The notes beneath the pieces were generated by a model, which was not told the origin of the DNA, searched no databases, and worked only from the letters and a program-made list of their open reading frames with translations. From IMG/VR virus record IMGVR_UViG_3300030376_001220, positions 1 to 30,943 of that record: a stretch of DNA of 30,943 bases; one strand, given 5' to 3'. This document shows, piece by piece, positions 1-20,311 of this stretch. Position 1 is the first letter of the stretch; every line of letters starts with the position of its first letter. The stretch is from a virus (Duplodnaviria > Caudoviricetes). Both the position numbers and the translations under genes were made by a program.

Positions 1-2
1 AT

Positions 3-182
3 TTATCTGTAGAGCAATTAAGATTAGTAAGCAAGATTGCCAAGTATCAGAAGCAAAGCAATGATCTTAAAGATGCTTTTGAAGATGCCAATATATTACA
101 GCAACAATATCTACAAGCATTAAAGACATCACTTAGCAATGATGAAACTACAAAAGCAATGGAAAATTCAAAGGCAAGCTAA
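3..182 (+). CDS. Partial (5'-truncated) hypothetical helical protein, ...LSVEQLRLVSKIAKYQ...MENSKAS*
   Basis: Open frame from the window start to TAA 180-182, coupled (TAATG) to the next gene; not in the ORF track. Confidence 0.6.
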   Translation, partial: LSVEQLRLVSKIAKYQKQSNDLKDAFEDANILQQQYLQALKTSLSNDETTKAMENSKAS

Positions 183-418
183 TGGAGTTAGATGGCACTA
201 TTATATGGAATGTAGTGTTAACACTTATTATTATGCCATGTGCCTGGGCTTTTAATAAAATGTTTGCAGAAGTTAAACGTCTTCAAATACTTTTAAATAA
301 AACTAGAGAAGAGTATGCTTCAAAAGAAGACTTGCGTGACACCTCAGCTAGAGTAATGGACACATTACATAGGCTAGAAGATAAGTTAGATAAGGTGCTA
401 ACAAATGGTAGTCGCTGA
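182..418 (+). CDS. Small membrane-anchored coiled-coil protein (lysis region)
   Basis: N-terminal hydrophobic helix IIWNVVLTLIIMPCAWAF followed by a coiled coil; TAATG coupling. Confidence 0.7.
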   Translation: MELDGTIIWNVVLTLIIMPCAWAFNKMFAEVKRLQILLNKTREEYASKEDLRDTSARVMDTLHRLEDKLDKVLTNGSR

Positions 419-1130
419 GGTTCTTACAGGAATAGCATTAGTCAAGAAATCCGTAGACTTTATTAAAGAAAATATCGGAACAGTAAATGATATAAAAGAC
501 ATTGCTGGTCAAATAGATGGTTTCTTTAAAGGTGAATCGGAGATGAATAAGAAAAGTGGTGGTATTGGTATTAAAGAACAATTTGGCATTGAAAGTACAG
601 CCTCTGATTTTATTGATAGGAAATTGTTAGAAGAAAAACGTCAAGAACTTAAGAATATGATTAACTTGAGATTTGGCCCTACAACTTGGGATCAGATCAT
701 AGCTGAAAGAGCAAACAGAATAAGTGAAGCTAAAGAAGCTGTACGTCTTAAGAAAGTAGAAGCTAGGCAACAACAGAAAGAAATTTTAGATTCATTCCAA
801 ACAATGGGTATTGTATTTTGTGTAATAGCTGTTCTTGCATTAGCAGTAATTGTTGCATTTAAAACTTATGCTAAAGATTATACAAGGCAGCAAAAGATTA
901 ATCGTGGCGATATAGTTCCACCAACAATGACTAAATGCAGATTAAAAAAACAAAAAGTATATAAAGATAAAATAGCTTGTATATACCAAGGTGCAAACAA
1001 AACATTTGAATTATCTTTTCAAGATATAAGAATAGGTTGTGTAAGAAACTTTTATTGTATTTTAAATCCAAATGGCAAAGAACCTAGTATTGATAAAGTC
1101 ATGGAAAGTTTAAGGAGCATTGCAAAATGA
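405..1130 (+). CDS. Hypothetical membrane protein: helical N-domain, one TM segment, Cys-rich C-domain
   Basis: 241-aa ORF with AAGGTG RBS; TM GIVFCVIAVLALAVIVAF; four Cys after the TM (CRL, CIY, GCV, YCI). Confidence 0.75.
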   Translation: MVVAEVLTGIALVKKSVDFIKENIGTVNDIKDIAGQIDGFFKGESEMNKKSGGIGIKEQFGIESTASDFIDRKLLEEKRQELKNMINLRFGPTTWDQIIAERANRISEAKEAVRLKKVEARQQQKEILDSFQTMGIVFCVIAVLALAVIVAFKTYAKDYTRQQKINRGDIVPPTMTKCRLKKQKVYKDKIACIYQGANKTFELSFQDIRIGCVRNFYCILNPNGKEPSIDKVMESLRSIAK

Positions 1131-1492
1131 TACAGTTATTAGGCCCTATAGCTAATATAGCTACAACTTGGCTTGAGGGTAGACAAGAGAAAGCCAAAGC
1201 TAAACAACAGTTAGAAGTTGCCAAAGTACAGGCACAAGTAAAACGTGTAGAACAAGATGGATCATGGGAAGAGAAAGCCATGGACGCATCTGACAACAGC
1301 TGGAAAGATGAAGCATGGACTATTACTTTCATACTGTTAATAATTGCCTGTTTTATACCAGCACTCCAACCATATATATCTGAAGGATTTAAGTTTCTAA
1401 GAGAAGATTGCCCTGAGTGGTTAAGCTATGGCATTCTTGCATCTATTGCAGCTTCTTTTGGATTAAAATCTATAGCAAAGTTAAAGAAATGA
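1127..1492 (+). CDS. Probable holin (3TM/GTA-holin-like)
   Basis: AGGAG RBS; SWKDEAWTI motif followed by two hydrophobic segments and a basic C-tail; lies just upstream of the endolysin. Confidence 0.7.
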   Translation: MIQLLGPIANIATTWLEGRQEKAKAKQQLEVAKVQAQVKRVEQDGSWEEKAMDASDNSWKDEAWTITFILLIIACFIPALQPYISEGFKFLREDCPEWLSYGILASIAASFGLKSIAKLKK

Positions 1493-1584
1493 AATCTTTT
1501 TATTTTAAAGCCTTCAAAGTATTAAATAATATGTCTAATTATTTTTATAGAAAATATGTTAATGGAGTAAGACGTGAAAGATAA
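1489..1584 (+). CDS. Unannotated 31-aa cationic/aromatic peptide MKSFYFKAFKVLNNMSNYFYRKYVNGVRRER
   Basis: ATGA overlap with the holin stop; fills the holin-endolysin gap and overlaps the endolysin start. Confidence 0.5.
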   Translation: MKSFYFKAFKVLNNMSNYFYRKYVNGVRRER

Positions 1585-2098
1585 TTTTCCTAAATGTATT
1601 GAAATGGTCTTGCATCATGAAGGTGGTTATGTTGATCACCCAAAAGACCCTGGGGGTGCTACAAATTTTGGTATAACAAAAAAAGTCTATGAAGTATATT
1701 TGGGTAGATCATGTACTAAAGATGAAGTAAAAGATATGCCAATGGAAGCTGTGTTAGATATATATAAACGTAAGTACTGGAATAAAGTAAGAGGCGATGA
1801 TTTACCAAGTGGGTTAGATTGGGCAGTATTTGATTTTGCAGTAAATGCTGGCGTATCTAGATCAGCTAAAACATTACAAGGATTTCTAGGCACACCTATA
1901 GATGGTATTATAGGGTCAGGAACATTACAAGCTATAAAAGATTATCCTACAACTTTAAAAGGTGTGATAGAAGTATTTACTGCCCAAAGATCGTCTTTTT
2001 ATAGAACCCTTAAAAACTATGATACGTTTGGTAAAGGTTGGGATAAGAGGTGTTATGAAACAAGAGTATCAGCTCTAGAAATGTTAGAGAGTACCTAA
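1574..2098 (+). CDS. Endolysin, glycoside hydrolase family 108 with C-terminal peptidoglycan-binding domain
   Basis: HEGGYVDHPKDPGGATNFGIT, FDFAVNAG, DGIIGSGT, FGKGW motifs; GTG start with GGAG RBS. Confidence 0.92.
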   Translation: MKDNFPKCIEMVLHHEGGYVDHPKDPGGATNFGITKKVYEVYLGRSCTKDEVKDMPMEAVLDIYKRKYWNKVRGDDLPSGLDWAVFDFAVNAGVSRSAKTLQGFLGTPIDGIIGSGTLQAIKDYPTTLKGVIEVFTAQRSSFYRTLKNYDTFGKGWDKRCYETRVSALEMLEST

Positions 2099-2350
2099 GC
2101 TGCTCCTGACACCTATCTGATTTGATGGTTTTTGTTTATGAATTACACCCTCATCAGGATCACGATGAGTTATATCCTCAAACATACCTTCTTCTGGTTT
2201 AGATGCTTTTGCAGTTTCTTCGAATATTCTTTTTAATTCATAGTTACGTGAGTGATTTCTGCAATCATGACATTTAGTTGGCTTTACTCTTAGGTTTCTT
2301 ACTTTCCTTAGATTACAACCACAGTCTATGCATACTTCATAATTTTGCAT
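2084..2350 (-). CDS. Small Zn-ribbon protein
   Basis: CIDC...CHDC; last gene of the - arm, overlapping the endolysin 3' end by 15 nt. Confidence 0.7.
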   Translation of the reverse strand: MQNYEVCIDCGCNLRKVRNLRVKPTKCHDCRNHSRNYELKRIFEETAKASKPEEGMFEDITHRDPDEGVIHKQKPSNQIGVRSSLGTL

Positions 2351-2351
2351 A

Positions 2352-2537
2352 TTAATTCCCTTTCTTTGGATTATAAACTCTTAGTCTTTGTATATCTGTT
2401 ATTTCATCATCACTTACTAATATACCAAATGTTTCCATAAAGTTGTCTTTTAATTTAAGTCTGTATTCATCTTCACTGTTAGCATCTATATTATTGCCAC
2501 CAAATATTATTGTTACTGTACTGGTATATTCTTGCAT
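2352..2537 (-). CDS. Hypothetical protein (61 aa)
   Basis: Tightly packed in the - strand operon. Confidence 0.6.
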   Translation of the reverse strand: MQEYTSTVTIIFGGNNIDANSEDEYRLKLKDNFMETFGILVSDDEITDIQRLRVYNPKKGN

Positions 2538-2539
2538 TG

Positions 2540-2785
2540 TTAATCTCTTTTATAATCTTTAAGTTGTAACACATTGTTTTTATTAGGTTTATTTACTTCT
2601 GTTTGTATTTCTATCAAATTAGGAGTGCCGACTAAAAGTGATAAAGTGACAACTGTAGGCACTCCAGAGATATTAAAACTATAATCAAAGTGTTGTATTG
2701 GATAATGTATATTATCACTACTTTGAATAGACTCTAAAATCTTTCTAATTTCCAAGGCAATACTTGCTGGAGATTCATATTCCAT
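2540..2785 (-). CDS. Hypothetical protein (81 aa)
   Basis: GAGG RBS, operon packing. Confidence 0.6.
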   Translation of the reverse strand: MEYESPASIALEIRKILESIQSSDNIHYPIQHFDYSFNISGVPTVVTLSLLVGTPNLIEIQTEVNKPNKNNVLQLKDYKRD

Positions 2786-2809
2786 AGTATTGCCTCAGAA
2801 TAAATTGCA

Positions 2810-3469
2810 TTAGCTAGCAATTTTTAGTTTAGTACGTGATGACTTAAAAAGTTCTTTGACCTCTTCTTGTGCCTTAGAACCCATGCTGTTGAATTTAGAT
2901 GTATTCAATGACCATACCTCATTCAATTCTTTTTTGTCTTTGACATCTGTCAATGCAGTTTTGAATGCTTGCACAGCTTCAAGATCTTTGTCAATAATTT
3001 TGTCAATCATATCACCCATAGGTAGATCTTCACCAGCATATACATTGATGCCAAGGCCATGATAAGCAAGACATTTAGTAAGACCACGTTGAAATGCATT
3101 GTTGATTTCTGTAGCATCAGGAATACGTCCAACCTTTTCTTTGTTGAATCGTGTAGTTTTCTCTGAATTGATAGCAGTCATCTTGTTGTCCATAACTGGA
3201 TATATCTCCATTATGTCAACTGTATCAATTTTGACAGATACTTTCACAAACGTATTGCCTTTGTAGTCACGCATGAATGGTAAAACATTGTGTTGATTGT
3301 CTACAAATGTATGCTTGGTAAATGTTGCAGTAGGAAATTCTTGCTTCACTGCTGCCCATGCATGAGTCCATGATACATAGTTTAGTCCATTCTTCTTTTC
3401 AATGTAACTTGATACGTCGATCTTTGATAGAACTTCCCATACCGATTTAGCTGAGGTTTTAGTTGCCAT
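2810..3469 (-). CDS. Single-strand annealing protein, Sak3/DUF1071 family
   Basis: LSKIDV..EKKNGLNYVSWTHAW and QRGLTKCLAYHGLGINVYAGEDLP motifs; adjacent to an exonuclease. Confidence 0.88.
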   Translation of the reverse strand: MATKTSAKSVWEVLSKIDVSSYIEKKNGLNYVSWTHAWAAVKQEFPTATFTKHTFVDNQHNVLPFMRDYKGNTFVKVSVKIDTVDIMEIYPVMDNKMTAINSEKTTRFNKEKVGRIPDATEINNAFQRGLTKCLAYHGLGINVYAGEDLPMGDMIDKIIDKDLEAVQAFKTALTDVKDKKELNEVWSLNTSKFNSMGSKAQEEVKELFKSSRTKLKIAS

Positions 3470-4328
3470 CTTTACTTCCCTTCTTTGGTTGATGTTTAAG
3501 TGTTACAGTATTGGATTTGCTTCTAGTGACAACAACTTTGTCGCCTTCTAGATTGCCTGACAGATCCAATACCATTTTACGACAGTTGTCAGGCAAATAG
3601 TGTTTGATAGATATCTTAGCCGTCTCTGCTATTTTATTGGCTTTGTTGGCTTCGATAATGTCCTGTGCATGAAGATTCATCTCTGACTGCATCTGACGAT
3701 CCCAGCATTCCAAATCTTTCATGTTGATACTAATTTGATCTGTCCAGTCAACAGGTGGTAGCACCTTGAACTCATCAGGCATATCATTGTTTTGATACCA
3801 ATTCCAAAACATTTTACATTGTTCCAGATATTCTTTGAGCCAAGCATCGTCTCTGTTAACTCTTCTGTATTCAAAACGACAATGAACACCGAAGAATACA
3901 GCTAGATAGCAATGATCAGCTGCTCTAGTGTGCATATGATGCTGACATTGTGCTTCATATAGGTCACATAGATCGTCCATAGGAATAAATCCCCAATGAG
4001 TTTTAGCTTCTATTGGATTCCCATCAGAAGCAATAGCATCATATGTTGAGTGTATAGGAACACCTTCATAGTCTACAGTTCTGCCTTGTCCAACTGATCC
4101 TACCTTTAGCTTTGTGTTTTTGCCAAAAGCATCAAGAACAAAAGATTCAAGATGATTACCAGCATCAAACATGAATTGTAGCTGTTTGGATATAAGTGGC
4201 TCAGACTCACCTTTCTTCTCTGATATAAGTTTAGCCCATGATTTGAAATCTCCACTAGCAATAATCTTAGCTTCTGATGAACCGATAAAATTTTTTCTTT
4301 CATTAAGCTGCTGTTGAGTTAGTGCCAT
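3459..4328 (-). CDS. YqaJ/lambda-exonuclease-like recombination nuclease
   Basis: RKNFIGSSE, GNHLE, STYD, IEAKT, Y.AQCQHHM (PD-(D/E)xK motifs). Confidence 0.88.
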   Translation of the reverse strand: MALTQQQLNERKNFIGSSEAKIIASGDFKSWAKLISEKKGESEPLISKQLQFMFDAGNHLESFVLDAFGKNTKLKVGSVGQGRTVDYEGVPIHSTYDAIASDGNPIEAKTHWGFIPMDDLCDLYEAQCQHHMHTRAADHCYLAVFFGVHCRFEYRRVNRDDAWLKEYLEQCKMFWNWYQNNDMPDEFKVLPPVDWTDQISINMKDLECWDRQMQSEMNLHAQDIIEANKANKIAETAKISIKHYLPDNCRKMVLDLSGNLEGDKVVVTRSKSNTVTLKHQPKKGSKDGN

Positions 4329-4572
4329 GATTCTTACCCTCCTGATATTGTTGTTTTAATCTGATTTCTAACCAATCCTCCTGTGCATGAGGACTGTTTC
4401 TCCCTTGCCAAGAAAGTTTACATACTTCCATGAAAAGTTCCATATTAAATCTACTGTTTCTTGATTTGGCTTTGACTGTTTTTGCAAACTGATCCATGTC
4501 TTGTGGATAGATCATAGGAGCAATTTCTTTAGCAAACCAAATAAGATCTTTACGACTGAACATTTGTGACAT
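4303..4572 (-). CDS. Hypothetical protein (89 aa)
   Basis: Strong AGGAGGT RBS; overlaps the start of the exonuclease gene. Confidence 0.7.
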   Translation of the reverse strand: MSQMFSRKDLIWFAKEIAPMIYPQDMDQFAKTVKAKSRNSRFNMELFMEVCKLSWQGRNSPHAQEDWLEIRLKQQYQEGKNHGTNSTAA

Positions 4573-4593
4573 TTTTACCTCCTAATTTTTTAT

Positions 4594-4623
4594 TTGAATA
4601 TATTGGCTTTCATGTGTAATACT
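4594..4623 (+). promoter_or_regulatory. Putative sigma70 promoter for the HTH gene (probably leaderless)
   Basis: TTGAAT 4594-4599, then TGtAATACT ending at 4623, 7 nt before ATG 4631; no SD sequence. Confidence 0.45.
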
Positions 4624-4630
4624 TCCGTAC

Positions 4631-4867
4631 ATGAATACTAAAGAAGAACAATGGATTGCTGATTTAGTTGGTCAGTTTACCCATCGTCGATATGAACTGA
4701 AGATTTCACAGAATGAACTTGACCATAGAATTGGTTGTGCAACAGGATTAGTTGCTAAGTGGGAAACTGGGAACAGAAAGCCAACAGCATTTAATTTGTA
4801 TTGTTGGGCTGAGGCCCTAAAATGTAAAATAAATGTGGAGGCGATCAATGATAATATGTGGAATTGA
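4631..4867 (+). CDS. XRE/Cro-C1 family helix-turn-helix regulator
   Basis: RRYELKISQNELDHRIGCATGLVAKWETGNRKP...WAEAL. Confidence 0.88.
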   Translation: MNTKEEQWIADLVGQFTHRRYELKISQNELDHRIGCATGLVAKWETGNRKPTAFNLYCWAEALKCKINVEAINDNMWN

Positions 4868-5339
4868 CCCAGGATTATCAGGTGGTATAGCTTTTTTTCA
4901 GAATACAGATTATCATCTTTATGCTGAGAAAGTACCAACCTATACACTAAAAACAAAGACTAAGACTAAAAGATTCTTAGATCTATGGCAAGTTATGACA
5001 ATTATTAATGATCATGACCCTGACCATGTATTTATAGAAAAACAACAAGCTATGCCAAATCAGGGACTAGTTAGCACATTTGCAACTGGTTTAGGCTATG
5101 GAGCTTATCTTGGATTACTTGTTGCTTCAGGTTATAGTTATACAGAAGTACAAGCAAGAATCTGGAAAAAAGATCTTAACTGTACTTCTGACAAAGACCA
5201 ATCAAGAGATATGGCCTCTAAGTTAATGCCCCAAGGACAACATTTCTGGACTAAGAAAAACCAAGATGGTGTTGCTGAAGCCAGTCTAATTGCCTATTGG
5301 GGTTTGAAAAAGTCTATCGAAAGATGTGTAGATGTATGA
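4848..5339 (+). CDS. RuvC-like Holliday junction resolvase
   Basis: GIDPGLSGGIA, VFIEKQ, WKK, DGVAEASLIA; start moved to ATG 4848 after GGAGG. Confidence 0.88.
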   Translation: MIICGIDPGLSGGIAFFQNTDYHLYAEKVPTYTLKTKTKTKRFLDLWQVMTIINDHDPDHVFIEKQQAMPNQGLVSTFATGLGYGAYLGLLVASGYSYTEVQARIWKKDLNCTSDKDQSRDMASKLMPQGQHFWTKKNQDGVAEASLIAYWGLKKSIERCVDV

Positions 5340-5421
5340 TGTGAGGGCATAGCAACCAACGTATACTTAATGACAGCTTATATGGCCTTTTAATGCTTGT
5401 TACCTTTCGGCTGCCCTCACA
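5340..5421. terminator. Stem-loop between convergent ruvC-like and parB-like genes
   Basis: TGTGAGGGCA 5340-5349 / TGCCCTCACA 5412-5421, perfect 10-bp inverted repeat; no clear U-tract, so function is uncertain. Confidence 0.4.
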
Positions 5422-5425
5422 AACT

Positions 5426-7024
5426 CTATACCTCTTCTAAAAACCTGATAGGGTCAAACTCAGCACCATTCTCAAATGCTTTGATGATCTTTTCCATGAC
5501 TAGCTTCTTGCCGTCAGTAGGTTGCAGATCGCATTTGATCTTGTTAGCAAGTAACCTTAGTTGGGTTATCTTGTATTTGTTGAGCCATTCTTCTGTTGGT
5601 TGGAACCAATTTTTGGCAATAGATAAGTTGTATATCTCTTTGTTTGCCTTGAATGTTTGTGACCTATCCATACAGCTAATAACTGCTTTACGTAAGATAG
5701 CAGCAAGTTCATGTTCTTGCTTACGGATAAAAAACATAAGACTATTGCATTTATGTTCTTTAGTATAATCAGACATTTCTTGCCAAAGAGTAGTAAAGTA
5801 GTCAAATGTATCTCCAGTTCTTTCATATTTGATATTGGTATAGTGTTCAACAGTATCATTCATGTGTTTGTCATCATGATATTGTGGTGTAATTGCATTA
5901 CAAGCCAAGGCAAGTGTAAAGTGTGAACCACTTGATTGTACCCAAGACTGATACTTAATCCTGTCACCTTCCCATAATTCTTTCCTTAGATAGTGATAAA
6001 ACATATCATTAGTAAGATCTAGTTGGGGATTAGACATATCAGCTAGTGTTAGATCTGGTATCTCACCATTCTCAATAGCTGCAAGTTCTTTCTTGGACAT
6101 ATCAATTTTGCTTCTGTATTTGTAAACATAGAATATACCTTTGATTGGTATTGCCATGATAACAACATCAAGATCTTTTCTACTTAGTTCTTGGCTTTTA
6201 ATCTCATGTTCATAGACTTGATCTTTGTTCTTGAGTAAACCCTTAACTTCTTGTGGATAAGTATCAATAACTACACATTCTCTGTATATTTTTTTGTAAT
6301 ACTTTTGCTTTTCTTCAATGAACTGGACAGCAAGAGGCATATATTGTGCCATGTTTGCAACATATTGTGCATCTGTAAAAAGATCACCATCAAAATCAAT
6401 AGACTTGAATAGCTTGTGTTTCTCAGGAATGATTACTTCTGATCTAAGTATTCTTACCTGACCAATCATTCTCTGTAGATCATCATAGTCAAAATGACCA
6501 TTACAATCATCATACAATCTATCCATAGTATCTTGATTTACATTGGTAAATAACTGAGCAATGCCAATACCAAACTCATTGTTACGAAATGCAGCTTTAA
6601 CCTTGTCAGATAAATCAGCAAAGGCAACACGTTGTTTGACCCATTTACTTGTCTGACCCCAGTTAACTGCCAAAGCATCGTATGTCATCTCACCATCAGC
6701 CATTACTTTACTGATTGCTTCTGATTCATCTAGTGGGTGCATACCCTCACGTAACATATTTGCCATGACACCAACTTCTGTTTCATTGTCATCAATAACT
6801 TTGCATGGAATCATCTCAGTAGAGTTTTTACCATGTATTTTCATCAAGGCTTCATAACGTCTGTTACCATCAATAACGATATAACCGACACCATTTTTCT
6901 TTACTACCAAATTGTGTAGTAGATCCCTGGACTTTATTGAGGCGATAAGAGTATCAAGATTGTTTGCCTTGACTGTTCTTACGTTCTGTGGATTTGGTTT
7001 TAGTTGATTTAATGCTATTTGCAT
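5426..7024 (-). CDS. Long ParB/Spo0J-family protein (plasmid/ICE ParB-like type), no ParA partner
   Basis: PNPQNVR, IDGNRRYEAL (GxRR), NMLREGMHPLDE, HTH, C-terminal WFQPTEEWLNKY; AAGGAG RBS. Confidence 0.88.
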   Translation of the reverse strand: MQIALNQLKPNPQNVRTVKANNLDTLIASIKSRDLLHNLVVKKNGVGYIVIDGNRRYEALMKIHGKNSTEMIPCKVIDDNETEVGVMANMLREGMHPLDESEAISKVMADGEMTYDALAVNWGQTSKWVKQRVAFADLSDKVKAAFRNNEFGIGIAQLFTNVNQDTMDRLYDDCNGHFDYDDLQRMIGQVRILRSEVIIPEKHKLFKSIDFDGDLFTDAQYVANMAQYMPLAVQFIEEKQKYYKKIYRECVVIDTYPQEVKGLLKNKDQVYEHEIKSQELSRKDLDVVIMAIPIKGIFYVYKYRSKIDMSKKELAAIENGEIPDLTLADMSNPQLDLTNDMFYHYLRKELWEGDRIKYQSWVQSSGSHFTLALACNAITPQYHDDKHMNDTVEHYTNIKYERTGDTFDYFTTLWQEMSDYTKEHKCNSLMFFIRKQEHELAAILRKAVISCMDRSQTFKANKEIYNLSIAKNWFQPTEEWLNKYKITQLRLLANKIKCDLQPTDGKKLVMEKIIKAFENGAEFDPIRFLEEV

Positions 7025-7098
7025 ATTACACTCCTTTTGTGTAGTGTTAGCGTAGGGGGGAGGTTTTTTCGTAACAGTTCCTTCAGCCCCCCTACAAA

Positions 7099-7458
7099 TT
7101 ATATAGCCTTAGTTGGCTTAGACTGATTAAGCAATCCGTGTATAAGACTCTGTAGATCCCTTTGAACAGGCTTGATATGCTTGATATCTGTACTGCTCAT
7201 ACCAATTTTAGCTGGTTCTAGCTCTTGATAACTTTGAAAGTCATTGATCTTATTGTCTTTACAAAAGTCTTTAATAGACTTTATTGCTTTTTGAGATAAC
7301 TTACTAGCATCTGAATCACTTAGATACACATACTTCTCAGCTACCTTTTCTATCTTGATTTCATTGTCATAAAATGCACCAATAAAGTCAAGAATCTTAC
7401 GTGCATTACCTTTTACTATATAGGTTTGCTCATCAATTTTTAGTTTAAAATGCATCAT
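7099..7458 (-). CDS. Hypothetical protein (119 aa)
   Basis: GGAGG RBS, coupled to the upstream gene. Confidence 0.7.
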   Translation of the reverse strand: MMHFKLKIDEQTYIVKGNARKILDFIGAFYDNEIKIEKVAEKYVYLSDSDASKLSQKAIKSIKDFCKDNKINDFQSYQELEPAKIGMSSTDIKHIKPVQRDLQSLIHGLLNQSKPTKAI

Positions 7459-7679
7459 TATTTATCCTCCATGATTTTGTCTGTGATGTATTTAGATGTG
7501 AATGCAACAGCTAGCCACAAGGGAGCTGCAACAACTGACACAACAAGTGTTGGGTTAACACCGATTGCCAATAAAGCAATAAGTACAAATATTGTTGAAC
7601 AAATATGTACTGTGCAAAACCAACCAAGCCAGTTTGCTTTTCTTGATATTGGTTTGATTGTTTTGATTTTTTCCCACAT
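7458..7679 (-). CDS. Small two-TM membrane protein
   Basis: Two hydrophobic segments; TAATG coupling on both sides. Confidence 0.7.
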   Translation of the reverse strand: MWEKIKTIKPISRKANWLGWFCTVHICSTIFVLIALLAIGVNPTLVVSVVAAPLWLAVAFTSKYITDKIMEDK

Positions 7680-8035
7680 TAGGCTACGATCCTTCCATTT
7701 AGATTAGCTTGTTTTGCATATTCATTTATTGTTGATTTGGCTTTCCAATGTATATCTCTTTCAATACCCAAAGCACCACCAAGTAATTTGACATTTTGTA
7801 ACTCATCATGATGTACATATCCTAGTTCTGGGTAACCATGACCCATATCACAAAGACCAAACATCATACCTTCTTCGTCCATTTCAGTTATGAGCCAAGT
7901 TGCAGACCCTACTGGACTGAACAGCTTGACTATCGGTGCAAAATCAATCTCTCCTTTGTCTGCGTTTTGTGCCTTGACGTTTGCATGGTAATTTGCGATC
8001 AACTGTTTTTTCAATGACTGTGTTAGTAATTGCAT
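7679..8035 (-). CDS. DUF2958-family protein
   Basis: DFAPIVKLFSPVGSATWLITE...FGLCDMGHGYPELGYV...GIERD; start moved to ATG 8035 after GGGAG. Confidence 0.85.
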   Translation of the reverse strand: MQLLTQSLKKQLIANYHANVKAQNADKGEIDFAPIVKLFSPVGSATWLITEMDEEGMMFGLCDMGHGYPELGYVHHDELQNVKLLGGALGIERDIHWKAKSTINEYAKQANLNGRIVA

Positions 8036-8219
8036 TTTGTAACTCCCTGAGTTTCTGATTAGTTTCAATAAGTAATGTATCTCTTTCATATAGTTTCCAT
8101 TGTAAATGGCCTATATGATTGTTTGCATCAACAAGAGCAGCTGTTCTCTGTGTTAGTTTAGTTTCTAACTCTTCGTAGCTTTGTTCTTCTTGTAGCTGTT
8201 CTTGCCAGTCTTTAGACAT
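7944..8219 (-). CDS. Hypothetical coiled-coil protein (91 aa)
   Basis: AAGGAGG RBS; C-terminus overlaps DUF2958 by 92 nt. Confidence 0.65.
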   Translation of the reverse strand: MSKDWQEQLQEEQSYEELETKLTQRTAALVDANNHIGHLQWKLYERDTLLIETNQKLRELQNAITNTVIEKTVDRKLPCKRQGTKRRQRRD

Positions 8220-8410
8220 AAGCCCTCCTTTTCATAGTTAATAAGATATTGTAAATAAGTTTTGGCTTTTTCTAAATCTTCAATTCCATTCTTCTGTTTA
8301 TACCTAAGAATGTATTTAATTATATTGCCTTGTAAGTATGATAAATTATTCTGTGTTATAAACTCTACTGGTTCTATTTTAAATTGTTCGTAATGTTGTG
8401 GCGATATCAT
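8165..8410 (-). CDS. DUF3310 (SaV-like / T7 gp1.7-related) protein
   Basis: PQHY..IEPVEFI..GNIIKYILRY..KNGIEDLEKA motif; GGAG RBS. Confidence 0.85.
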   Translation of the reverse strand: MISPQHYEQFKIEPVEFITQNNLSYLQGNIIKYILRYKQKNGIEDLEKAKTYLQYLINYEKEGLCLKTGKNSYKKNKATKS

Positions 8411-8492
8411 TTTTTTCTCCAGTAAAATAGGGAGAGCCTAAGGGTTTATATGTACAAAGCTCTCCCAATCCGTCTATTGATCCGTGTAGGAC

Positions 8493-8924
8493 TTAGAACG
8501 GAATCTCATCGTCAACTGTTTCGTCTACCTTGGGGGATTTATTATTACCCTTGGCAGATGTTGAGTCAACTGCTTTTGAGTTGATGAGCCTGAAAGTAGA
8601 AGACACACCAGCTAGTTTGATTTTGAAAGCAGTCATTTTCTGACCATCTTTCTCATAGGACTCAACGATTGGAAAACCCTGTACAAATACTGTAGTACCA
8701 GCTTGTACATACTTTTCTATGACGTTGGACACAAGACCTTTTCCGTTCTTGCCGTCCCAAGCCTCACATCTATACCAATGAGTATTTTCTACTTTCTCAC
8801 CAGCATTGTTTGTGTAGCCTTCGTTGACTGCAATAGAGAAGTTAGCAACCTTAGTGCCATTGACTTCTTTTATTTCAGGTAGTTGTCCAATGTTACCTGA
8901 TACCATGATTTGAGCAATGTTCAT
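8493..8924 (-). CDS. ssb: Single-stranded DNA-binding protein
   Basis: OB-fold motifs (GNIG..PE, NFSIAVN, THWYRCEAW) and acidic C-tail DDEIPF; AAGGAG RBS. Confidence 0.95.
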   Translation of the reverse strand: MNIAQIMVSGNIGQLPEIKEVNGTKVANFSIAVNEGYTNNAGEKVENTHWYRCEAWDGKNGKGLVSNVIEKYVQAGTTVFVQGFPIVESYEKDGQKMTAFKIKLAGVSSTFRLINSKAVDSTSAKGNNKSPKVDETVDDEIPF

Positions 8925-9101
8925 CTGTTTCTCCTTTACGTTAAGATGATTGTTAAATCAGAACCTGTTTAGATTCTAATGCCAATAGCCCTTGGCTTTT
9001 TAGACCAAAGGCTAAAGGACTTGACTAGTAAGAGGATTAGGGGCATCACCTCTAAGTTGTACATACCATCTTGTCGACCAGACTGTACATCATTATCAAG
9101 A

Positions 9102-9386
9102 TTATTTGGGGGGAACATTAACCCATCTAACCTTGAATCCTTTCCTTATTGGCTTTTCATACCCTATTGTCTTCTTGAGTATAAAAAGAACTATTGAGAT
9201 AATTGCACCACCAAGAATAGCTGCCATCATACCAGCAAAAGTACCAGCAAACATAACTATCAAGGCGATTGAGGCTCCAATGTCTACTGCAATATCAAAA
9301 CATAGAACCTTTTTCATATCGAGTTTGGCTAACATAAAGAGTATAGCTACAGCTGATGCGACACCAGCTATCAAATAGAATAACAT
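9102..9386 (-). CDS. Small three-TM membrane protein
   Basis: AGGAGGT RBS; three hydrophobic segments and a basic tail. Confidence 0.75.
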   Translation of the reverse strand: MLFYLIAGVASAVAILFMLAKLDMKKVLCFDIAVDIGASIALIVMFAGTFAGMMAAILGGAIISIVLFILKKTIGYEKPIRKGFKVRWVNVPPK

Positions 9387-9521
9387 TTGAACCTCCTTTT
9401 TTATTTAAATTCACTTTGGCTTTCTGAGGCGATAAAGAGTGAAAAATGGTTGGGATTAGCTTTGTTGTTCCCTCTATGCTCTGACTTAGGGAGATCAAAG
9501 AGGGAACGTCTTTGAAAGATT

Positions 9522-9710
9522 TTAGAGGGTCGATCCCTCTAAATAATCTTTACTAGGCTTTTTATATATTCTCTTGAAGAGTGGAATAAGATCATACTGT
9601 ATTATATGCATAACACCTCCGACTCCAGACAAGACTGTAACGAATAAAAGTAAAAAGAAGGCTATAGGAAAGAAAGCCAAGATTGATAAGTTTATAAAAA
9701 ATAGTTTCAT
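9522..9710 (-). CDS. Small membrane protein (62 aa)
   Basis: Long hydrophobic N-half; ATG 9710 follows GGAG (the track starts at TTG 9722). Confidence 0.6.
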   Translation of the reverse strand: MKLFFINLSILAFFPIAFFLLLFVTVLSGVGGVMHIIQYDLIPLFKRIYKKPSKDYLEGSTL

Positions 9711-9787
9711 AATATGCTCCAATTAATAGTTGGGTGTAAGGGAGGTATCTACCAATTACAGGATTGACCTCACACCCAGGGGATTAG

Positions 9788-10561
9788 TTACTCAAGATCT
9801 TCTGGCATCTCCAATATGCCATCTTGATTGCTGATATCCAGCATAAGCTCATCATGCTTAGATGAGATAGGATAGACCTTAGATCGGTCAGATTGTAAGT
9901 CATCATATACATCACGACTGTTGACAAGAGTATCAAGTGTCATCTTCTCATTACGTTTCTGCATACGCTTGACCTTGGCAAACTCATGAAGCTGAGTGTA
10001 TTTGCCGAAGCTGATACCAGTCTGACCTTGAATGATAGGTCTGAAGTTGTTCAGCAATGTCTTGAATGCATGATTGATAGATGCATACTGCTTACGCATT
10101 TGATCTAGCTTGGCATCATGATCTTCTAGCTTGTTGCCTGTTATCTCAATGCCAACATCTTGACGAACCAAGACCTGACGTTGACGTTGCATCTTCTCTG
10201 CTTGTTCAAGAACTGAATCTCTCATCTTCTCAAACATACGAGGTAGCTGATCTTGTAGCTTGGCTTTGACAATAACCTCATCACCATCTTCAAACATCTC
10301 AGCAAGTGCCAATGCACGTTTGACAAACTCTTGCTCCCATTCTACGTCGTATGATGACTTGGGTTTGAATGCCTTGGCAACATTGTCAAGTTGCTCTGCT
10401 GTCATAGCATCAAGCTCTTGCTTTGCCTTGTTCTGATCTGGTGTACGATTCTCATACTGCCATTCTGCAAGTGCAATGTTAGCTTGTGTCAGATGTGGCA
10501 TATTCAATCTCTTACGCATCTGATCTGATTTCTCTTTTGATATATTTATATATTGTACCAT
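9788..10561 (-). CDS. Helical/coiled-coil early protein (257 aa)
   Basis: Start moved to ATG 10561 after GAAAGGAA; acidic C-tail. Confidence 0.8.
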   Translation of the reverse strand: MVQYINISKEKSDQMRKRLNMPHLTQANIALAEWQYENRTPDQNKAKQELDAMTAEQLDNVAKAFKPKSSYDVEWEQEFVKRALALAEMFEDGDEVIVKAKLQDQLPRMFEKMRDSVLEQAEKMQRQRQVLVRQDVGIEITGNKLEDHDAKLDQMRKQYASINHAFKTLLNNFRPIIQGQTGISFGKYTQLHEFAKVKRMQKRNEKMTLDTLVNSRDVYDDLQSDRSKVYPISSKHDELMLDISNQDGILEMPEDLE

Positions 10562-10625
10562 TGTAATGTTCCTTTCATGGTAGTTAAGGGGATATATAAT
10601 TATACCCCCTGTAATATTGGCTTTC

Positions 10626-10868
10626 TTAGTTGCCCATGTCATACTTGATTGTTAGTAATTCATGAGCCCTTTGCTCATCACCAGCTTCAATAGCTTTTTG
10701 TATATCCCAATCTAATTGGCTAGATGGCATAGGATCTGACCTGAATGGCAACCTGAACTCAGGTGGATCAAGTAGATCAACTGTTGAAGTATTTTGATAT
10801 GACACCATATTATCTAAAATCTCTAGATCACTTGGTTGGCTTTTATTAAATAGATTGAGCTGTTTCAT
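10626..10868 (-). CDS. First gene of the early arm, hypothetical (80 aa)
   Basis: GAAAGGAA RBS; N-terminal QLNLF resembles a beta-clamp-binding motif. Confidence 0.7.
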   Translation of the reverse strand: MKQLNLFNKSQPSDLEILDNMVSYQNTSTVDLLDPPEFRLPFRSDPMPSSQLDWDIQKAIEAGDEQRAHELLTIKYDMGN

Positions 10869-10889
10869 TGTAACATTCCTTTCAACTAA

Positions 10890-11400
10890 CTCCTCCTACG
10901 GAATTGTAGGATTACGATGGACACGGCTTATCGGAAAGGTTCTGTCAATTACCGAAGTGGAAGAAAATCGTCTTTGTCGACGACCACTTAGGAGGAGCTA
11001 TTTTCTGGGAACGTAGCCGTCAGGACTCCAACTTGTTGGAGGGTGATTTACAGGTTCTCGGGAGATAGGCCCAACTGGAGGTTATCATATAATTTCCGTA
11101 GTAGTAGTCGTCGACGATTAGTCGACTCATTATGTTTGGGCTACCCTTTTATAAAGGGTTGATATAATGAAGCCACGGCTTTTGTTAATACGATCATATC
11201 CACAAGGCTATGAAAAGAACGAGATGTAACATAGGGAATCTTACGTAGTGAGATGAGTGGAGTGGAATCTTGTTCTAAGTATTATCAAAAACGGACTGGA
11301 GTTATATTCTAGCCCAGATCGTTACCCGAATGGGCCGACACAACTTAGTGTCGGTGAGGTTAGGAGTTCACTCCTTAGCGAATAGAGCTGGATAAAGCTA
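10890..11400 (+). other. Large multi-domain structured non-coding element (candidate ssDNA origin/promoter cluster or ncRNA)
   Basis: More than a dozen nested inverted repeats with G-T pairs on the + strand; no ORF; lies between divergent arms. Confidence 0.7.
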
Positions 11401-11419
11401 CTAATAACAATGACTTATA

Positions 11420-11458
11420 AATGTGAATTGACAGACATATTACTAGTATGGTTATACT
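11420..11458 (+). promoter_or_regulatory. Late promoter box 1 (AATGTGAA-TTGACA...TATACT) upstream of terS
   Basis: TTGACA 11428-11433, TATACT 11453-11458 (19-nt spacer); motif repeated at three other intergenic sites. Confidence 0.6.
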
Positions 11459-11486
11459 CTCGTAGAGAAACTAAAAGAGCTGCCTT

Positions 11487-11918
11487 ATGAAAGCAAATAA
11501 CGAACAACAAGAACGATACAGTAGATCAATAGTTCCGATGGAAGACATACAGAAGAACAGCCAAGTACTCTTACCTAATCATACACAAGTAACTGAAGCA
11601 CAAGCTGAATTAGTACACGCAATGTTGCATGATGGTTGCAACCCAACAGAAGGTGCAAAGAGGTTGGGTAGGAATAAAGCATGGGCTTACAAAACCATTG
11701 CAAAACAACACGTTGTGGAATATAGACAACAAATAGCAATGAGTTGTTTAGGTTGGGACGCAACACAAGCATTGGCAACTATGAGAGATCTGTTGAATGC
11801 TAAGTCATCTCATGTACGATTGGAAGCAAGTAGAGATCTGATGGATCGTGCTGGTCTGAGAGTAGATGCACCTAGACAGAGCAATACTTCTGTAAATATA
11901 AACTTCAATGTTGACTGA
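11487..11918 (+). CDS. Terminase small subunit (probable)
   Basis: N-terminal HTH, ALATMRDLL..SSHVRLEASRDLMDRAG motif, C-terminal beta strand VNINFNVD; upstream of TerL. Confidence 0.75.
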   Translation: MKANNEQQERYSRSIVPMEDIQKNSQVLLPNHTQVTEAQAELVHAMLHDGCNPTEGAKRLGRNKAWAYKTIAKQHVVEYRQQIAMSCLGWDATQALATMRDLLNAKSSHVRLEASRDLMDRAGLRVDAPRQSNTSVNINFNVD

Positions 11919-16528: not shown

Positions 16529-16794
16529 TGAAAAAGGAAAAAGTCAATGCATCTATCGATAGTCGAAGCTACACTACTGAAGTTGAAGCTGATCTTAATA
16601 ATAAAGCCTATGCTCTTTTTGGTTCAGGGATTGGCAAGTTGTTCCTTCAATATTTGGAGAATCTCACAACGGGCAACATTCATGGGGCAGGCGTACCAAT
16701 CGAAAGTCTTGCTCACTTTGAAGGTCAGAGGTGGGTAGTTGCACTAATAAAACATAGAACAGAACTTGGGAGAAGAAATGGCGATACCAACTAA
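16528..16794 (+). CDS. Conserved post-portal protein (Bbp19-like)
   Basis: LFGSGIGKLFLQYL...LAHFEGQRWVV motif. Confidence 0.7.
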   Translation: MKKEKVNASIDSRSYTTEVEADLNNKAYALFGSGIGKLFLQYLENLTTGNIHGAGVPIESLAHFEGQRWVVALIKHRTELGRRNGDTN

Positions 16795-16930
16795 TCCAGC
16801 ACTATATGCAAAAGCCAAAGCTATTGTAAAAAAAAGAGTTGCTAAATGGCCATCGGCATATGCCTCAGGGCAGTTAGTTATTCAATATAAGAAAATGGGT
16901 GGTGGTTATAAAGGTGGCAAAAAGACATGA
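16778..16930 (+). CDS. Unannotated 50-aa basic protein (DUF5872-like N-half)
   Basis: MAIPTNPALYAKAK...WPSAYASGQLVIQYKKMGGGYKGGKKT; GGGAG RBS; ATGA-coupled to the next gene. Confidence 0.75.
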   Translation: MAIPTNPALYAKAKAIVKKRVAKWPSAYASGQLVIQYKKMGGGYKGGKKT

Positions 16931-17157
16931 GTCTTAAGAAGTGGTTTGGTGAAAAGTGGGTTGATATATCCACAAAGAAAGATGGTAAGCACCCAAAGTG
17001 TGGAAGAACTATGGGAGATGGTAGAAAATATCCCAAATGTGTACCATCATCTAAAGCTGCACGAATGACAGTAGCTGAAAAACGAAAAGCCACCACAAGA
17101 AAAAGGAAGACAAACCCTGAAGGTGGTGGTAAAAAACCAACTTATGCAAGGACGTAA
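16927..17157 (+). CDS. Small basic protein (DUF5872-like C-half)
   Basis: SLKKWFGEKWVDI..CGR..KYPKCVP. Confidence 0.75.
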   Translation: MSLKKWFGEKWVDISTKKDGKHPKCGRTMGDGRKYPKCVPSSKAARMTVAEKRKATTRKRKTNPEGGGKKPTYART

Positions 17158-17160
17158 CAA

Positions 17161-17430
17161 ATGGCAAAGACACCAGCATGGCAACGTAAAGAAGGGAAAA
17201 ACCCAAGTGGAGGACTCAATGCCAAAGGTAGAGCAAGTTTACGTCGTCAGGGGAAGAATATCAAACGTCCTGTTTCTGCGAAAGAAGCTAAGAAAAGCCC
17301 AAAAGCAGCTGCAAGACGTAAATCATTTTGTAAAAGAATGATGGGAATGAAAAAGAAATTGACTAGTAAGAAAACGGCTAATGATCCAAATAGTCGTATT
17401 AATAAAGCACTAAGAAAGTGGGACTGCTAA
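17161..17430 (+). CDS. Small basic protein (DUF6321-like)
   Basis: AWQRKEGKNPSGGLNAKGRAS...RRKSFCKRM...ALRKWDC. Confidence 0.75.
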   Translation: MAKTPAWQRKEGKNPSGGLNAKGRASLRRQGKNIKRPVSAKEAKKSPKAAARRKSFCKRMMGMKKKLTSKKTANDPNSRINKALRKWDC

Positions 17431-19416: not shown

Positions 19417-19677
19417 ATGGCGTTAGTACAAGCAGACTTAAGTTTAGTTTCCTATGCTGGTAATGGGTTCCATATCTGGAATTACAAATCTACTGGTGAT
19501 GCTCTTAACACAATAGATGCTGCTGGATATTTCAATGCATTAGTCAACGAAATGAATGTTGGCGATGTTATATTCATCAATGCATCTAATGGTTTTGGTA
19601 TTACAACTGTGGTATCTAATGATGGATCAGCAATCGATACTGCTGATATTGTTAGCATGACCTCGGATAGTAGATAA
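19417..19677 (+). CDS. Probable capsid cement/decoration protein
   Basis: AGGAGGT RBS; TIDAAGYFN..VGDVIF motif; directly after the major capsid gene. Confidence 0.65.
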   Translation: MALVQADLSLVSYAGNGFHIWNYKSTGDALNTIDAAGYFNALVNEMNVGDVIFINASNGFGITTVVSNDGSAIDTADIVSMTSDSR

Positions 19678-19820
19678 TGGCTAAGAAACCAACAAAAACT
19701 AAGGAGGTGGCTGTAAAGGCCACTTCCTCTCATACTGTAGAAACCTCAAATGGTACAGTTTATACTGTTAGATTTGGGGATAAAGTTAAATTAGGGAGTA
19801 AAGTTGATGCCAAAAGCTAG
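19677..19820 (+). CDS. Unannotated 47-aa basic protein MAKKPTKTKEV...
   Basis: TAATG-coupled; fills the gap before the next gene. Confidence 0.55.
   Translation: MAKKPTKTKEVAVKATSSHTVETSNGTVYTVRFGDKVKLGSKVDAKS
19702..19728 (+). terminator. Hairpin after the capsid/cement genes (possible attenuating terminator or stability element)
   Basis: AGGAGGTGGC/GCCACTTCCT, 10-bp stem with one G-U; poor U-tract. Confidence 0.4.
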
Positions 19821-20016
19821 TGATGGAAAAAACTTTCCATATACAAAAGAGGGTCTTGTCCAACTTAAAGCATACAACGAAAGACTAAAGAAAAAGCCAA
19901 AGACAATGGGTAAAGAAAAGAATGGCAATGGTGAAAGTATGCTAACTGCCAATCAGAAGAAATTACCTGAAGATCTAAAGAAAAAAATAATTGCTAAGAA
20001 AAAGGAGTCAGCATAA
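19807..20016 (+). CDS. Small Lys-rich protein
   Basis: GGGAG RBS; GKNFPYTKEG, KKPKTMG, LTANQKKLPEDLKKKI. Confidence 0.7.
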   Translation: MPKASDGKNFPYTKEGLVQLKAYNERLKKKPKTMGKEKNGNGESMLTANQKKLPEDLKKKIIAKKKESA

Positions 20017-20057
20017 TGAAAAAAAAGGGTAAAGGCAAAGGTGGCAGAGGTTACTAA
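20016..20057 (+). CDS. 13-aa micro-peptide MKKKGKGKGGRGY
   Basis: AAGGAG RBS; TAATG coupling at both ends. Confidence 0.55.
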   Translation: MKKKGKGKGGRGY

Positions 20058-20311
20058 TGAAGTATTCTAATGATCCACAAACTTCTTATATGGAAAAAAA
20101 GAATACAATGAATTACTTCAGTAAGAAGAAAAATAAAAGTTTTGGTGAAATGTCTGCTCCTGAAAGAGTTGGTAATTTAATAGTAGGCGTAGCACATGGT
20201 TCTTTTTTAGAATTTCAAAAATCTAAGAATATTAGAACTATGGGAAAAAATTTATACAAAACTAGACCAAAGAAAAATAAAGTATTCTTTGATAAAGGTA
20301 AAGTATTCTAA
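20057..20311 (+). CDS. Small Lys-rich protein (84 aa)
   Basis: GAGGT RBS; coupled; abuts tail tubular A. Confidence 0.65.
   Translation: MKYSNDPQTSYMEKKNTMNYFSKKKNKSFGEMSAPERVGNLIVGVAHGSFLEFQKSKNIRTMGKNLYKTRPKKNKVFFDKGKVF

Follow-up and report, generated by a model that had tools for sequence, protein, structure and literature searches.

A divergent HerB-like ParB is a core early-arm protein of marine podoviruses with no recognisable DNA-copying genes

The DNA analysed here, a 30,943-nucleotide stretch recorded as IMGVR_UViG_3300030376_001220 (the window), belongs to a clade of widespread uncultured marine podoviruses without recognisable DNA-copying genes, of which our literature search found no description. 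Its early arm encodes a 532-aa ParB whose sequence is homologous to YfjB/HerB from the leading region of F, over D1-D2, part of D3, and D4. The first characterisation of HerB dates from 2026 and describes a plasmid factor by which newly entered cells are reprogrammed (PMC13370423). Since the clade has kept a HerB relative and has no recognisable DNA-copying genes, plasmid-style takeover combined with copying by host machinery appears likely; with a probability of about 0.5, we thus propose that the divergent HerB-like ParB acts on the host after entry and that the genome is copied by host restart proteins on recombination intermediates.

The early arm (2084–10868) encodes Sak, YqaJ, HTH, RuvC, ParB, DUF2958 and SSB proteins, and lies between the convergent endolysin gene (end at 2098) and a divergence region of about 620 bp ahead of terS (11487). 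The features are given below, with occurrence counted among the 25 of 80 clade loci that span o284 to the lysis genes (fully covered arms, near-duplicates counted); Hodr is Pelagibacter phage EXVC031P Hodr (OQ414635), the closest isolate (terL 55%, major capsid 49%).

11625–11644, plus strand: codon-frozen cis element TTGCAT-RAY-GGTTGCAACCC within terS; it contains a perfect palindrome of 10 bp (11634–11643)
10869–11486, no strand: divergence region from the early arm to terS, hairpin-rich, weakly conserved, without a DnaA-box cluster
10626–10868, minus strand: first early ORF, 80 aa, no family match, homologues in the relatives G001, G002, G005 and G006
9788–10561, minus strand: core helical protein o284, probably translated from the ATG at 10561 (257 aa), with the longest ORF starting at 10642
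9102–9386, minus strand: small core membrane protein of 94 aa, ahead of ssb, PHROGs unknown families, 25/25 fully covered arms
8493–8924, minus strand: SSB (Pfam SSB) with an acidic host-type tail, DDEIPF
8165–8410, minus strand: DUF3310 protein (Pfam), accessory, confined to a sub-clade
7679–8035, minus strand: DUF2958 protein (Pfam, 8e-33), accessory, 12/25 arms
7458–7679, minus strand: small membrane protein, 73 aa, identity 51–90% in 7/7 near-complete relatives
5426–7024, minus strand: HerB-like orphan ParB, 532 aa (Pfam ParB_N+HTH_ParB)
4833–5339, plus strand: RuvC-like Holliday junction resolvase (PHROGs 1770, E 3e-28), 25/25 arms
4631–4867, plus strand: Xre-type HTH protein (Pfam HTH_3), homologous to the N-terminus of the Hodr HTH-DnaT fusion, without the DnaT domain
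4303–4572, minus strand: small conserved ORF of 89 aa, immediately ahead of YqaJ, the position of a loader-like gene in Hodr
3459–4328, minus strand: YqaJ/RecE-like exonuclease (Pfam 9e-7, PHROGs), 25/25 arms
2810–3469, minus strand: Sak single-strand annealing protein (Pfam E 2e-32, PHROGs), 25/25 arms
2084–2785, minus strand: three small distal ORFs (81, 61 and 88 aa), accessory, no family above the Pfam cut-off; the last (88 aa) has two CxxC

Pfam matches above cut-off in the arm were Sak, YqaJ, HTH_3, ParB_N+HTH_ParB, DUF2958, DUF3310 and SSB; RuvC fell below the Pfam cut-off, yet was clear as a resolvase in PHROGs. Every gene that the initial annotation had named in the arm was present where it had been placed, and the plus-strand orientation of HTH and RuvC, opposite to the other arm genes, is a detail missing from it. 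The annotation had also described the arm as free of recognisable DNA polymerase, primase, helicase, RNA polymerase, initiator and integrase genes; indeed, the 43 window proteins scanned gave no match to these families or to ParA in Pfam and PHROGs, and relaxase or transfer genes were found neither among the window proteins nor in the clade clusters scanned. ParB, YqaJ, Sak and RuvC were each present in 25/25 fully covered arms.

The window is one linear contig whose ends have no terminal overlap, and a second contig from a different run covers positions 1–9844 with 26 differences. The complete relative G001 (34,435 bp, direct terminal repeats, CheckV 100%, terL 91%) is syntenic with the window, 84% of which aligned at 80% nucleotide identity. 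When the unseen part of about 3.5 kb was filled from G001, only tail and accessory genes were added, the eight gap ORFs belonging to tail fibre, tail, 2OG-Fe(II) oxygenase, lipoprotein or unknown families; the oxygenase ORF also gave weaker matches to endonuclease PHROGs. Completing the genome was one of the checks that the initial annotation had proposed for the missing replisome, and the gap ORFs held no polymerase, primase or helicase. Replisome genes were likewise absent from the whole of G001 and from the near-complete G005 and G006, and 91 further cluster representatives gave no match to polymerase, primase, helicase or initiator PHROGs. Nine contig matches considered as a same-strain bridge over the gap proved to be other phages with a common small tail-associated gene. 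GTDB scans for a host via prophages gave no close terL or o284. In metatranscriptome contigs from one study the ParB gene was covered and the divergence bin was not; as these are contigs and may include DNA, we do not take them as evidence of expression.

The likeness of the long ParB to the F leading region, pointed out in the initial annotation, was borne out by profile comparison. The protein divides into D1-D2 (about 1–190), a short D3 (about 192–322) and a D4-like domain (325–532), and matched three plasmid long ParBs over 516 columns (probability 99.95). Against 76 HerB-like proteins, the per-domain probabilities were 100 for D1-2, 97 for D3 (60 columns) and 97 for D4 (187 columns), with all reversed and cross-domain controls below 1; against a set of 29 proteins chosen by means of HerB itself, D4 reached a probability of 63 (E 7e-5, 177 columns). 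Furthermore, a phage C-terminal HMM found 33 of the 76 HerB-like proteins and none of 380 shuffles. Three results count against our reading at this point: the D4 HMM alone, at E<1e-3, recovered none of the 120 phage proteins, the alignment of F HerB alone to the phage ParB is limited to residues 2–225, and the D3 alignment takes in only about 60 of 180 positions (probability 88–97), below the coverage filter of at least 80% used in the HerB preprint.

D1 is homologous to that of the HerB-like proteins (probability 99.9–100), matches ParB/Noc/KorB in fold and retains Box II GxxR, with G53, R55 and R56 in all 110 phage sequences. The D2 HTH (residues 81–191) matched the ParB DNA-binding domain at Z 13.7 (rmsd 2.3, 108 aligned) and KorB at 12.7. 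For D4, a predicted homodimer scored 0.73, the best of three controls 0.00, with contact agreement of at least 86% and pLDDT of at least 85, and the score mark was reached by 20/30 solved pairs and 1/23 single chains; the model thus predicts that the D4-like domain dimerises. In the residue comparison, which uses HerB numbering, the Box III glutamate E130 is replaced by alanine (Ala88 of the phage protein) in 110/110 phage proteins, whereas it is Glu in 29/29 and 75/76 HerB-like proteins; the Ala mutant of HerB E130 lost foci (PMC13370423). At the positions of R172 and K175, through which HerB contacts DNA, the phage protein has Q131 and A134, and both this difference and the Box III change speak against the preferred reading. 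The natural Glu-to-Ala change suggests that CTP hydrolysis is slow or absent, and with it a long-lived clamp. An equation of the phage-changed positions with M. xanthus Q52 and E93 was rejected, since E93 belongs to the GERR box and the Q52A chain still has its LQP glutamine. A search for a hidden replication fold in ParB returned, apart from one weak C-terminal match given below, matches only to ParB, KorB and Noc, the middle part being barely covered, and a fold predicted without an alignment was unusable (pLDDT 33). No cognate ParA was matched in the window or the clade clusters scanned.

Like HerB (YfjB/ParB2) of F, the phage protein is a long orphan ParB that combines CTP-binding and HTH domains with a D3 'DLFS' segment and a helical D4, and an ssb gene lies a few genes upstream; it differs in length (532 vs 652 aa), in its short D3, in Box III and in the recognition-helix residues, and it belongs to the core of a tailed-phage clade and sits on a long branch of its own. 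In the tree, all long HerB-like proteins split from canonical ParB (support 100/100), with the phage ParB forming a deep phage-only branch outside the proteobacterial plasmid HerB clade. The phage HerB relatives comprise more than 100 divergent sequences, in 136 clusters at 90% identity.

According to our preferred reading, the HerB-like ParB would probably act just after DNA entry, forming a CTP-gated dimer on host DNA and shifting host transcription. YqaJ would resect DNA ends and Sak would anneal or invade, giving circularisation and then D-loops; the acidic SSB tail, whose (I/V)P(F/I) end is present in 76/76 clade copies, may recruit host PriA/DnaB/DnaG/Pol III, and RuvC would resolve branches ahead of packaging. 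SPP1, the closest studied phage with an exonuclease, annealase and SSB set, weighs against this: its recombination-dependent replication uses host polymerase and primase, but it depends on three proteins of its own, the origin binder G38P, the loader G39P and the helicase G40P, and is PriA-independent (PMC3561973). No counterpart of these three proteins was detectable in the clade, and our literature search found no precedent for purely recombination-dependent initiation without any phage initiator. The entry-type genes were probably gained singly from a plasmid/ICE/phage pool, not as one module; the HerB-like protein is core and DUF2958 accessory in the clade, and ArdC or DUF932 occurs in sister phages. 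Phages and conjugative elements have been described as holding common genes for the post-entry period (ArdC-N, MPTase, ParB-like domains) (PMC5512222); in the parts of that paper considered here, the ParB domains are DdrB-like and belong to polyvalent proteins, not to the four-domain HerB family.

The initial annotation had instead seen a podovirus that took over one conjugative-establishment module. Its missing replisome and its ParB, now a HerB homologue, hold; the single module is not supported, as DUF2958 is accessory and weakly phage-grouped and ParB lies outside the plasmid HerB clade. We consider it very improbable that the phage acquired an entire conjugative leading-region block, made up of ssb, DUF2958, long parB and either an ssDNA promoter or a priming signal, and that this block drives ssDNA-primed replication. 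Such a capture would fit the neighbourhood of DUF2958 and HerB-like ParB genes, which recurs in bacterial genomes (31/79 loci, 6-kb flank), the SSB gene near HerB-like genes in 21/57 bacterial loci of a second set, the F plasmid, in which ssb sits two genes ahead of herB, and a short hairpin ahead of ssb in 6/8 aligned genomes. However, DUF2958 was found in only 12/25 fully covered arms and occurred without HerB in 5/16 sister-phage loci, and its tree groups it weakly (84) with two alphaproteobacterial phages, not with the HerB-linked copies. In the phylogenies that the annotation had proposed as a check, ParB was not nested in plasmid HerB, DUF2958 grouped weakly with phage copies, and a block origin found no support; SSB, 29–36% identical to plasmid and phage SSBs alike, was uninformative. 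The ssDNA promoter had been cited there as part of the F layout only, and no conserved Frpo-like promoter was found, promoter matches being at chance level (37 vs 39.4 ± 6.3). Hairpins with z of −3 to −5 were seen, but the long ones are not conserved. Moreover, tailed phages inject double-stranded DNA. A different role for the HerB-like protein would be on the phage DNA, as a parS-like clamp at the terS palindrome that either marks an origin or serves to partition a plasmid-like carrier state, with host enzymes replicating; this we regard as unlikely. The palindrome occurs in 23/23 non-redundant regions, once per genome in the window and 7/7 near-complete relatives; terS codons 48 and 50–52 are identical in 28/28 genes, with synonymous sites frozen. 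The element is a candidate pac or ParB-loading (clamp-loading) site. The confirmed ParB HTH fold and the failure to find an initiator elsewhere also favour this role, as does the absence of the palindrome from Hodr, MEP301 and the upstream regions of 16/16 HerB-less Hodr-like loci, weak evidence since their terS is only distantly related. Against it, pac is the simpler reading because P22 has its pac site within terS (PMC9611059), ParA is missing, G010, which has no HerB-like gene, carries two palindrome copies, both outside terS, and F HerB did not bind its own plasmid.

The clade may alternatively have an origin-binding initiator or a helicase loader of its own, unrecognised in sequence and most likely o284, with a theta start like that of lambda or SPP1 followed by recombination-dependent replication; we give this a low probability. 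The main remaining candidate, o284, is core, stands at the arm start and has no named relative: it was present in 7/7 near-complete relatives (37–77% identity), its family had 59 representatives at E<=0.001, 30 of which were scanned with one HHH_5 match, and no match was found in PDB, ESM Atlas, the phage collection or GTDB, although the lack of a PDB or Atlas match also tells against an initiator. Related phages do carry initiator-like genes. Hodr shares the two-arm layout, YqaJ, SSB, HTH and resolvase with the clade, but lacks a HerB-like gene and carries genes for ArdC and an HTH-DnaT fusion as well as a loader-like gene, and its metagenomic relatives have early arms with ArdC, DUF2958 or DUF932; MEP301 has a winged-HTH protein. 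The HTVC010P-type pelagiphages are, like the clade, marine podoviruses whose early and late arms lie on opposite strands and which lack DNA and RNA polymerases, but most encode a DnaA DNA-binding domain, and 'ParB' is absent from the text of the paper (PMC8477408). Among the window proteins scanned, no DnaA-domain gene was matched by Pfam. The Hodr DnaT domain or loader-like genes were found in 0/80 clade loci vs 10/16 Hodr-like loci, and 35 ORF-family profiles reached at most 0.71 against loader and DnaT profiles (positive control 99.9) and gave no match to the MEP301 proteins. A relation of o284 to the first Hodr ORF was rejected (probability 0.18 as single sequence, 5.9 as profile), and the 89-aa ORF showed no homology to the Hodr loader-like gene (0.37). 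No convincing iterons or operator repeats were found in the arm; DnaA boxes formed no cluster, with counts close to shuffled expectation in 36 regions, and an Rfam scan gave no match. That a co-infecting or resident element supplies initiator and helicase functions would agree with the absence of replication genes from every clade member examined, but is scarcely credible: the virion, packaging and lysis gene sets are complete, the clade is present in many marine runs, and relatives carrying integrase and S24 repressor remnants resemble ordinary temperate phages.

We tentatively suggest a wider meaning, in which this abundant clade dropped all initiator, loader and replisome genes and keeps, as the product of its largest early-arm gene, a hydrolysis-altered HerB-type CTP clamp; this clamp would either rewire the host on entry or load at the terS palindrome to launch host-driven replication, and sisters would swap in ArdC, DUF932 and DUF2958, together a phage 'leading region' drawn from a plasmid establishment pool. 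The INPHARED search of the HerB preprint gave only three phage homologues, all from cyanophages, for which its authors offered no explanation (PMC13370423). To these the clade adds more than 100 divergent relatives, in which the gene is core and the focus-disabling residue is naturally changed, so that the natural Glu-to-Ala variant is a direct test of the roles of CTP hydrolysis and D4. The clade also allows one to ask whether tailed phages use plasmid-type entry-phase host reprogramming, and makes testable how a 34-kb double-stranded DNA phage without a detectable initiator or loader starts its replication. As a minor observation on the ParB C-terminus, residues 476–522 gave a weak Rho-N/SAP-like match (Z 6.6), and its ESM Atlas matches were to unnamed clusters only.

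The window is a single marine phage contig of 30,943 bp lacking a terminal overlap, and its positions 1-9844 are also spanned by a contig from another run. Its main features are as follows:

1574-2098, endolysin, the last lysis gene of the late arm
2084-10868, early arm, encoding Sak, YqaJ, an Xre HTH protein, RuvC, a 532-aa ParB_N/HTH_ParB protein, DUF2958, DUF3310 and SSB, with the HTH and RuvC genes on the opposite strand
11487 onwards, late arm, from the start of terS to a tail fibre gene interrupted by the contig end, resuming at the window start with the lysis genes
11625-11644, inside terS, codon-frozen element TTGCAT-RAY-GGTTGCAACCC, containing a perfect 10-bp palindrome and two copies of TTGCA spaced 11 bp from each other

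Scanning of 43 window proteins gave no match to a polymerase, primase, helicase, initiator, ParA or integrase, which confirmed the initial annotation of this early-arm gene set as free of recognisable replisome genes. The same held for the counterparts of the unseen part. In the complete relative G001 (34,435 bp, 77-bp terminal repeat, terL 91%), the eight ORFs from the large virion gene to the holin belong to tail fibre, tail, 2OG-Fe(II) oxygenase, lipoprotein or unknown families, and the eleven ORFs of the equivalent gap in G005 belong to tail or unknown families or have no match; neither set contains a recognisable replisome gene, so the finding that would have refuted the initial annotation did not materialise. 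The host is probably an alphaproteobacterium, since the nearest isolate is a Pelagibacter phage.

Of 148 clade loci detected by a profile scan, 80 were retained; 25 of these, near-duplicates included, span the arm from o284, the core helical gene at its start, to the lysis genes. ParB, RuvC, YqaJ, Sak and a 94-aa membrane protein are each present in all 25, SSB in 24, DUF2958 in 12 and an integrase in three (nine of the 80 loci overall). The integrase follows Sak (L268-L270, L275, L276, L283, L286, L299, L309), and an S24/UmuD-like gene diverges from the HTH gene in part of the clade (L107:14429-15442). Another relative, G007, carries an integrase, an excisionase and an S24 repressor, all absent from the window. 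The clade thus includes temperate members, and since the integrase and the S24/UmuD-like gene occur in part of it and not in the window, lifestyle varies within it. None of the 91 previously unannotated representatives, from 259 ORF clusters listed, matched replication families in PHROGs, the small, rare clusters being covered in part, and literature searches found no published description of this podovirus clade.

Clustering at 90% gives the 532-aa ParB 136 relatives, almost all of them unnamed proteins from metagenomes. Its family profile aligned with three plasmid long ParBs over 516 columns (probability 99.95). A 2026 preprint shows F YfjB, renamed HerB, to be a four-domain ParB-like dimer that is produced on plasmid entry, binds the chromosome and reprograms transcription, and counts 426 plasmid and three phage homologues (PMC13370423). 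Compared with 29 HerB-like proteins that had been picked using HerB itself, the phage family scored 99.9 for D1-D2, 88 for the start of D3 and 63 for D4 (E 7e-5, 177 columns); when 47 further proteins, retrieved by phage N-terminal motifs, were included, the D3 and D4 scores rose to 97, and all reversed and cross-domain controls stayed below 1. At the sequence level, single-direction HMM support for the relationship is uneven: the phage C-terminal HMM matched 33 of the 76 HerB-like proteins, F HerB itself not among them, and the D4 HMM matched none of 120 phage proteins.

Box II of HerB is intact in the phage proteins, whereas the Box III glutamate (E130), kept in 29/29 HerB-like proteins, is replaced by Ala88 in 110/110 phage proteins. 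Furthermore, Q74 is His in 108/110, R172 and K175 correspond in the alignment to Q131 and A134, and D3 is short. Since two features that define HerB were looked for and not found, we call the phage protein HerB-like rather than HerB. In a careful D1-D2 tree (39 subsampled rows, long branches excluded), all long HerB-like proteins split from canonical ParB (100/100), and the phage proteins fell together in a single clade (100/100) on a stem of 1.77, separate from the HerB clade of proteobacteria (96/92). A quick 97-row tree gave them a different sister group, and the trees therefore fix neither donor nor direction. A large set of HerB-like ParBs from Planctomycetota and other environmental genomes (L116-L172), often with SSB and VirD4-like genes nearby, retains the Box III glutamate, yet often has the phage-type GNRR form.

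The ParB model (pLDDT 83) matched ParB-family folds only, and its pTM of 0.39 is expected for mobile domains. Its D4-like segment, residues 325-532, is predicted to form a homodimer, scoring 0.73 versus 0.00 for the best control, with at least 86% of contacts agreeing between runs and pLDDT of at least 85; the benchmark mark was reached by 20/30 solved pairs and 1/23 single chains. The top-ranked contacts are arranged symmetrically about residues 397-401, some 8 residues away from the stretch that aligns with the intermolecular strand of HerB. The PDB search with the model returned no HerB chain, which makes it less likely that the dimer score was memorised.

The interpretation in the initial annotation gained partial support. 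Separate gains of entry genes fit the data better than the block capture of a plasmid leading-region module proposed initially. Bacterial HerB-like loci are taken here to be ICE- or plasmid-like. Within 6-kb flanks, DUF2958 occurs at 31 of 79 such loci, in agreement with the initial annotation on its neighbourhood, and DUF932 at 35; of 57 loci in a further set, 21 have SSB nearby, 16 a VirD4-like gene and 5 ArdC. However, the whole-module proposal was not supported, as the ParB falls outside the proteobacterial HerB clade, and DUF2958, carried by 12 of the 25 arms, joins weakly two roseobacter phages (84; 113 columns) and next roseobacter plasmids, not the HerB-linked copies, in a tree that took in 2/10 phage and 2/192 plasmid records. 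The clade SSB, 29-36% identical to plasmid and equally to phage SSBs, favours neither side. Among 16 loci related to Pelagibacter phage EXVC031P that extend 8.4 kb or more upstream of terL, a HerB-like gene is absent throughout; five carry ArdC, five DUF2958, three DUF932 and three none of these, never two together. In sister-podovirus early arms, such genes lie at L016:13573-14457, L328:11088-11945 and L363-L435. A DnaT-like domain together with a gene that we take, on the basis of a motif, to be loader-like occurs in 10 of the 16 versus 0 of the 80 clade loci, and G010 combines DUF932 with a loader-like gene. Entry-phase genes common to phages and conjugative elements are an established theme (PMC5512222).

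Polymerase-less marine podoviruses are known: the HTVC010P type, mostly with a DnaA domain (PMC8477408), and MPP-C cyanophages with a primase-helicase (PMC9860041). A missing polymerase alone is thus ordinary; less usual is that the window's clade has no detectable initiator, loader or helicase at all. The remaining replication-related set comprises an exonuclease, an annealase, a resolvase and an SSB whose tail is acidic in 76/76 clade copies. Since acidic SSB tails bring in PriA and further replication proteins of the host, our best inference is that D-loops would be primed by host restart proteins recruited via this tail. Against this reading, SPP1 has its own initiator and is PriA-independent (PMC3561973), and o284 could be a hidden initiator. 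Comparison of 35 ORF-family profiles with sister initiators and loaders gave no match; likewise, we found no DnaA-box cluster (36 regions), no iterons in the early arm, no Rfam element and no excess of matches in an ssDNA-promoter search.

Hairpins with z of -3 to -5, as upstream of F ssb, are present and lack conservation. Strong ones (z about -5) lie on the early strand at 2676-2825, the junction of Sak and the next gene, and at 9420-9569, upstream of the 94-aa membrane gene. A short hairpin immediately 5' of ssb (about 8985-9015), possibly an RNA or ssDNA signal, is kept in six of eight aligned genomes, the remaining two having a GC-rich look-alike. In the divergence region of relative G002 (L101:5560-6455), a small hairpin whose loop reads GAAGA/GAAGT is repeated three to four times, and G001 has two copies; it was not seen in the window.

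Within terS, GGTTGCAACC occurs in 23/23 non-redundant terL-to-o284 regions, and codons 48 and 50-52 are invariant across 28/28 terS genes; the number of such codons is 0-2 in each of eight other genes and five in the short HTH gene. The 11625-11644 element is present in a single copy per clade genome. It is a candidate pac or a candidate ParB/clamp-loading site, the former being likelier because P22 pac is located in terS (PMC9611059). If packaging began there and proceeded along the late arm, the end carrying o284, ssb and ParB would be the last to be packaged and the first to enter. Several small, very basic ORFs, including DUF5872 and DUF6321, lie among the head and tail genes at 16766-17430, 19677-20311 and 29504-29656 and are kept in relatives.
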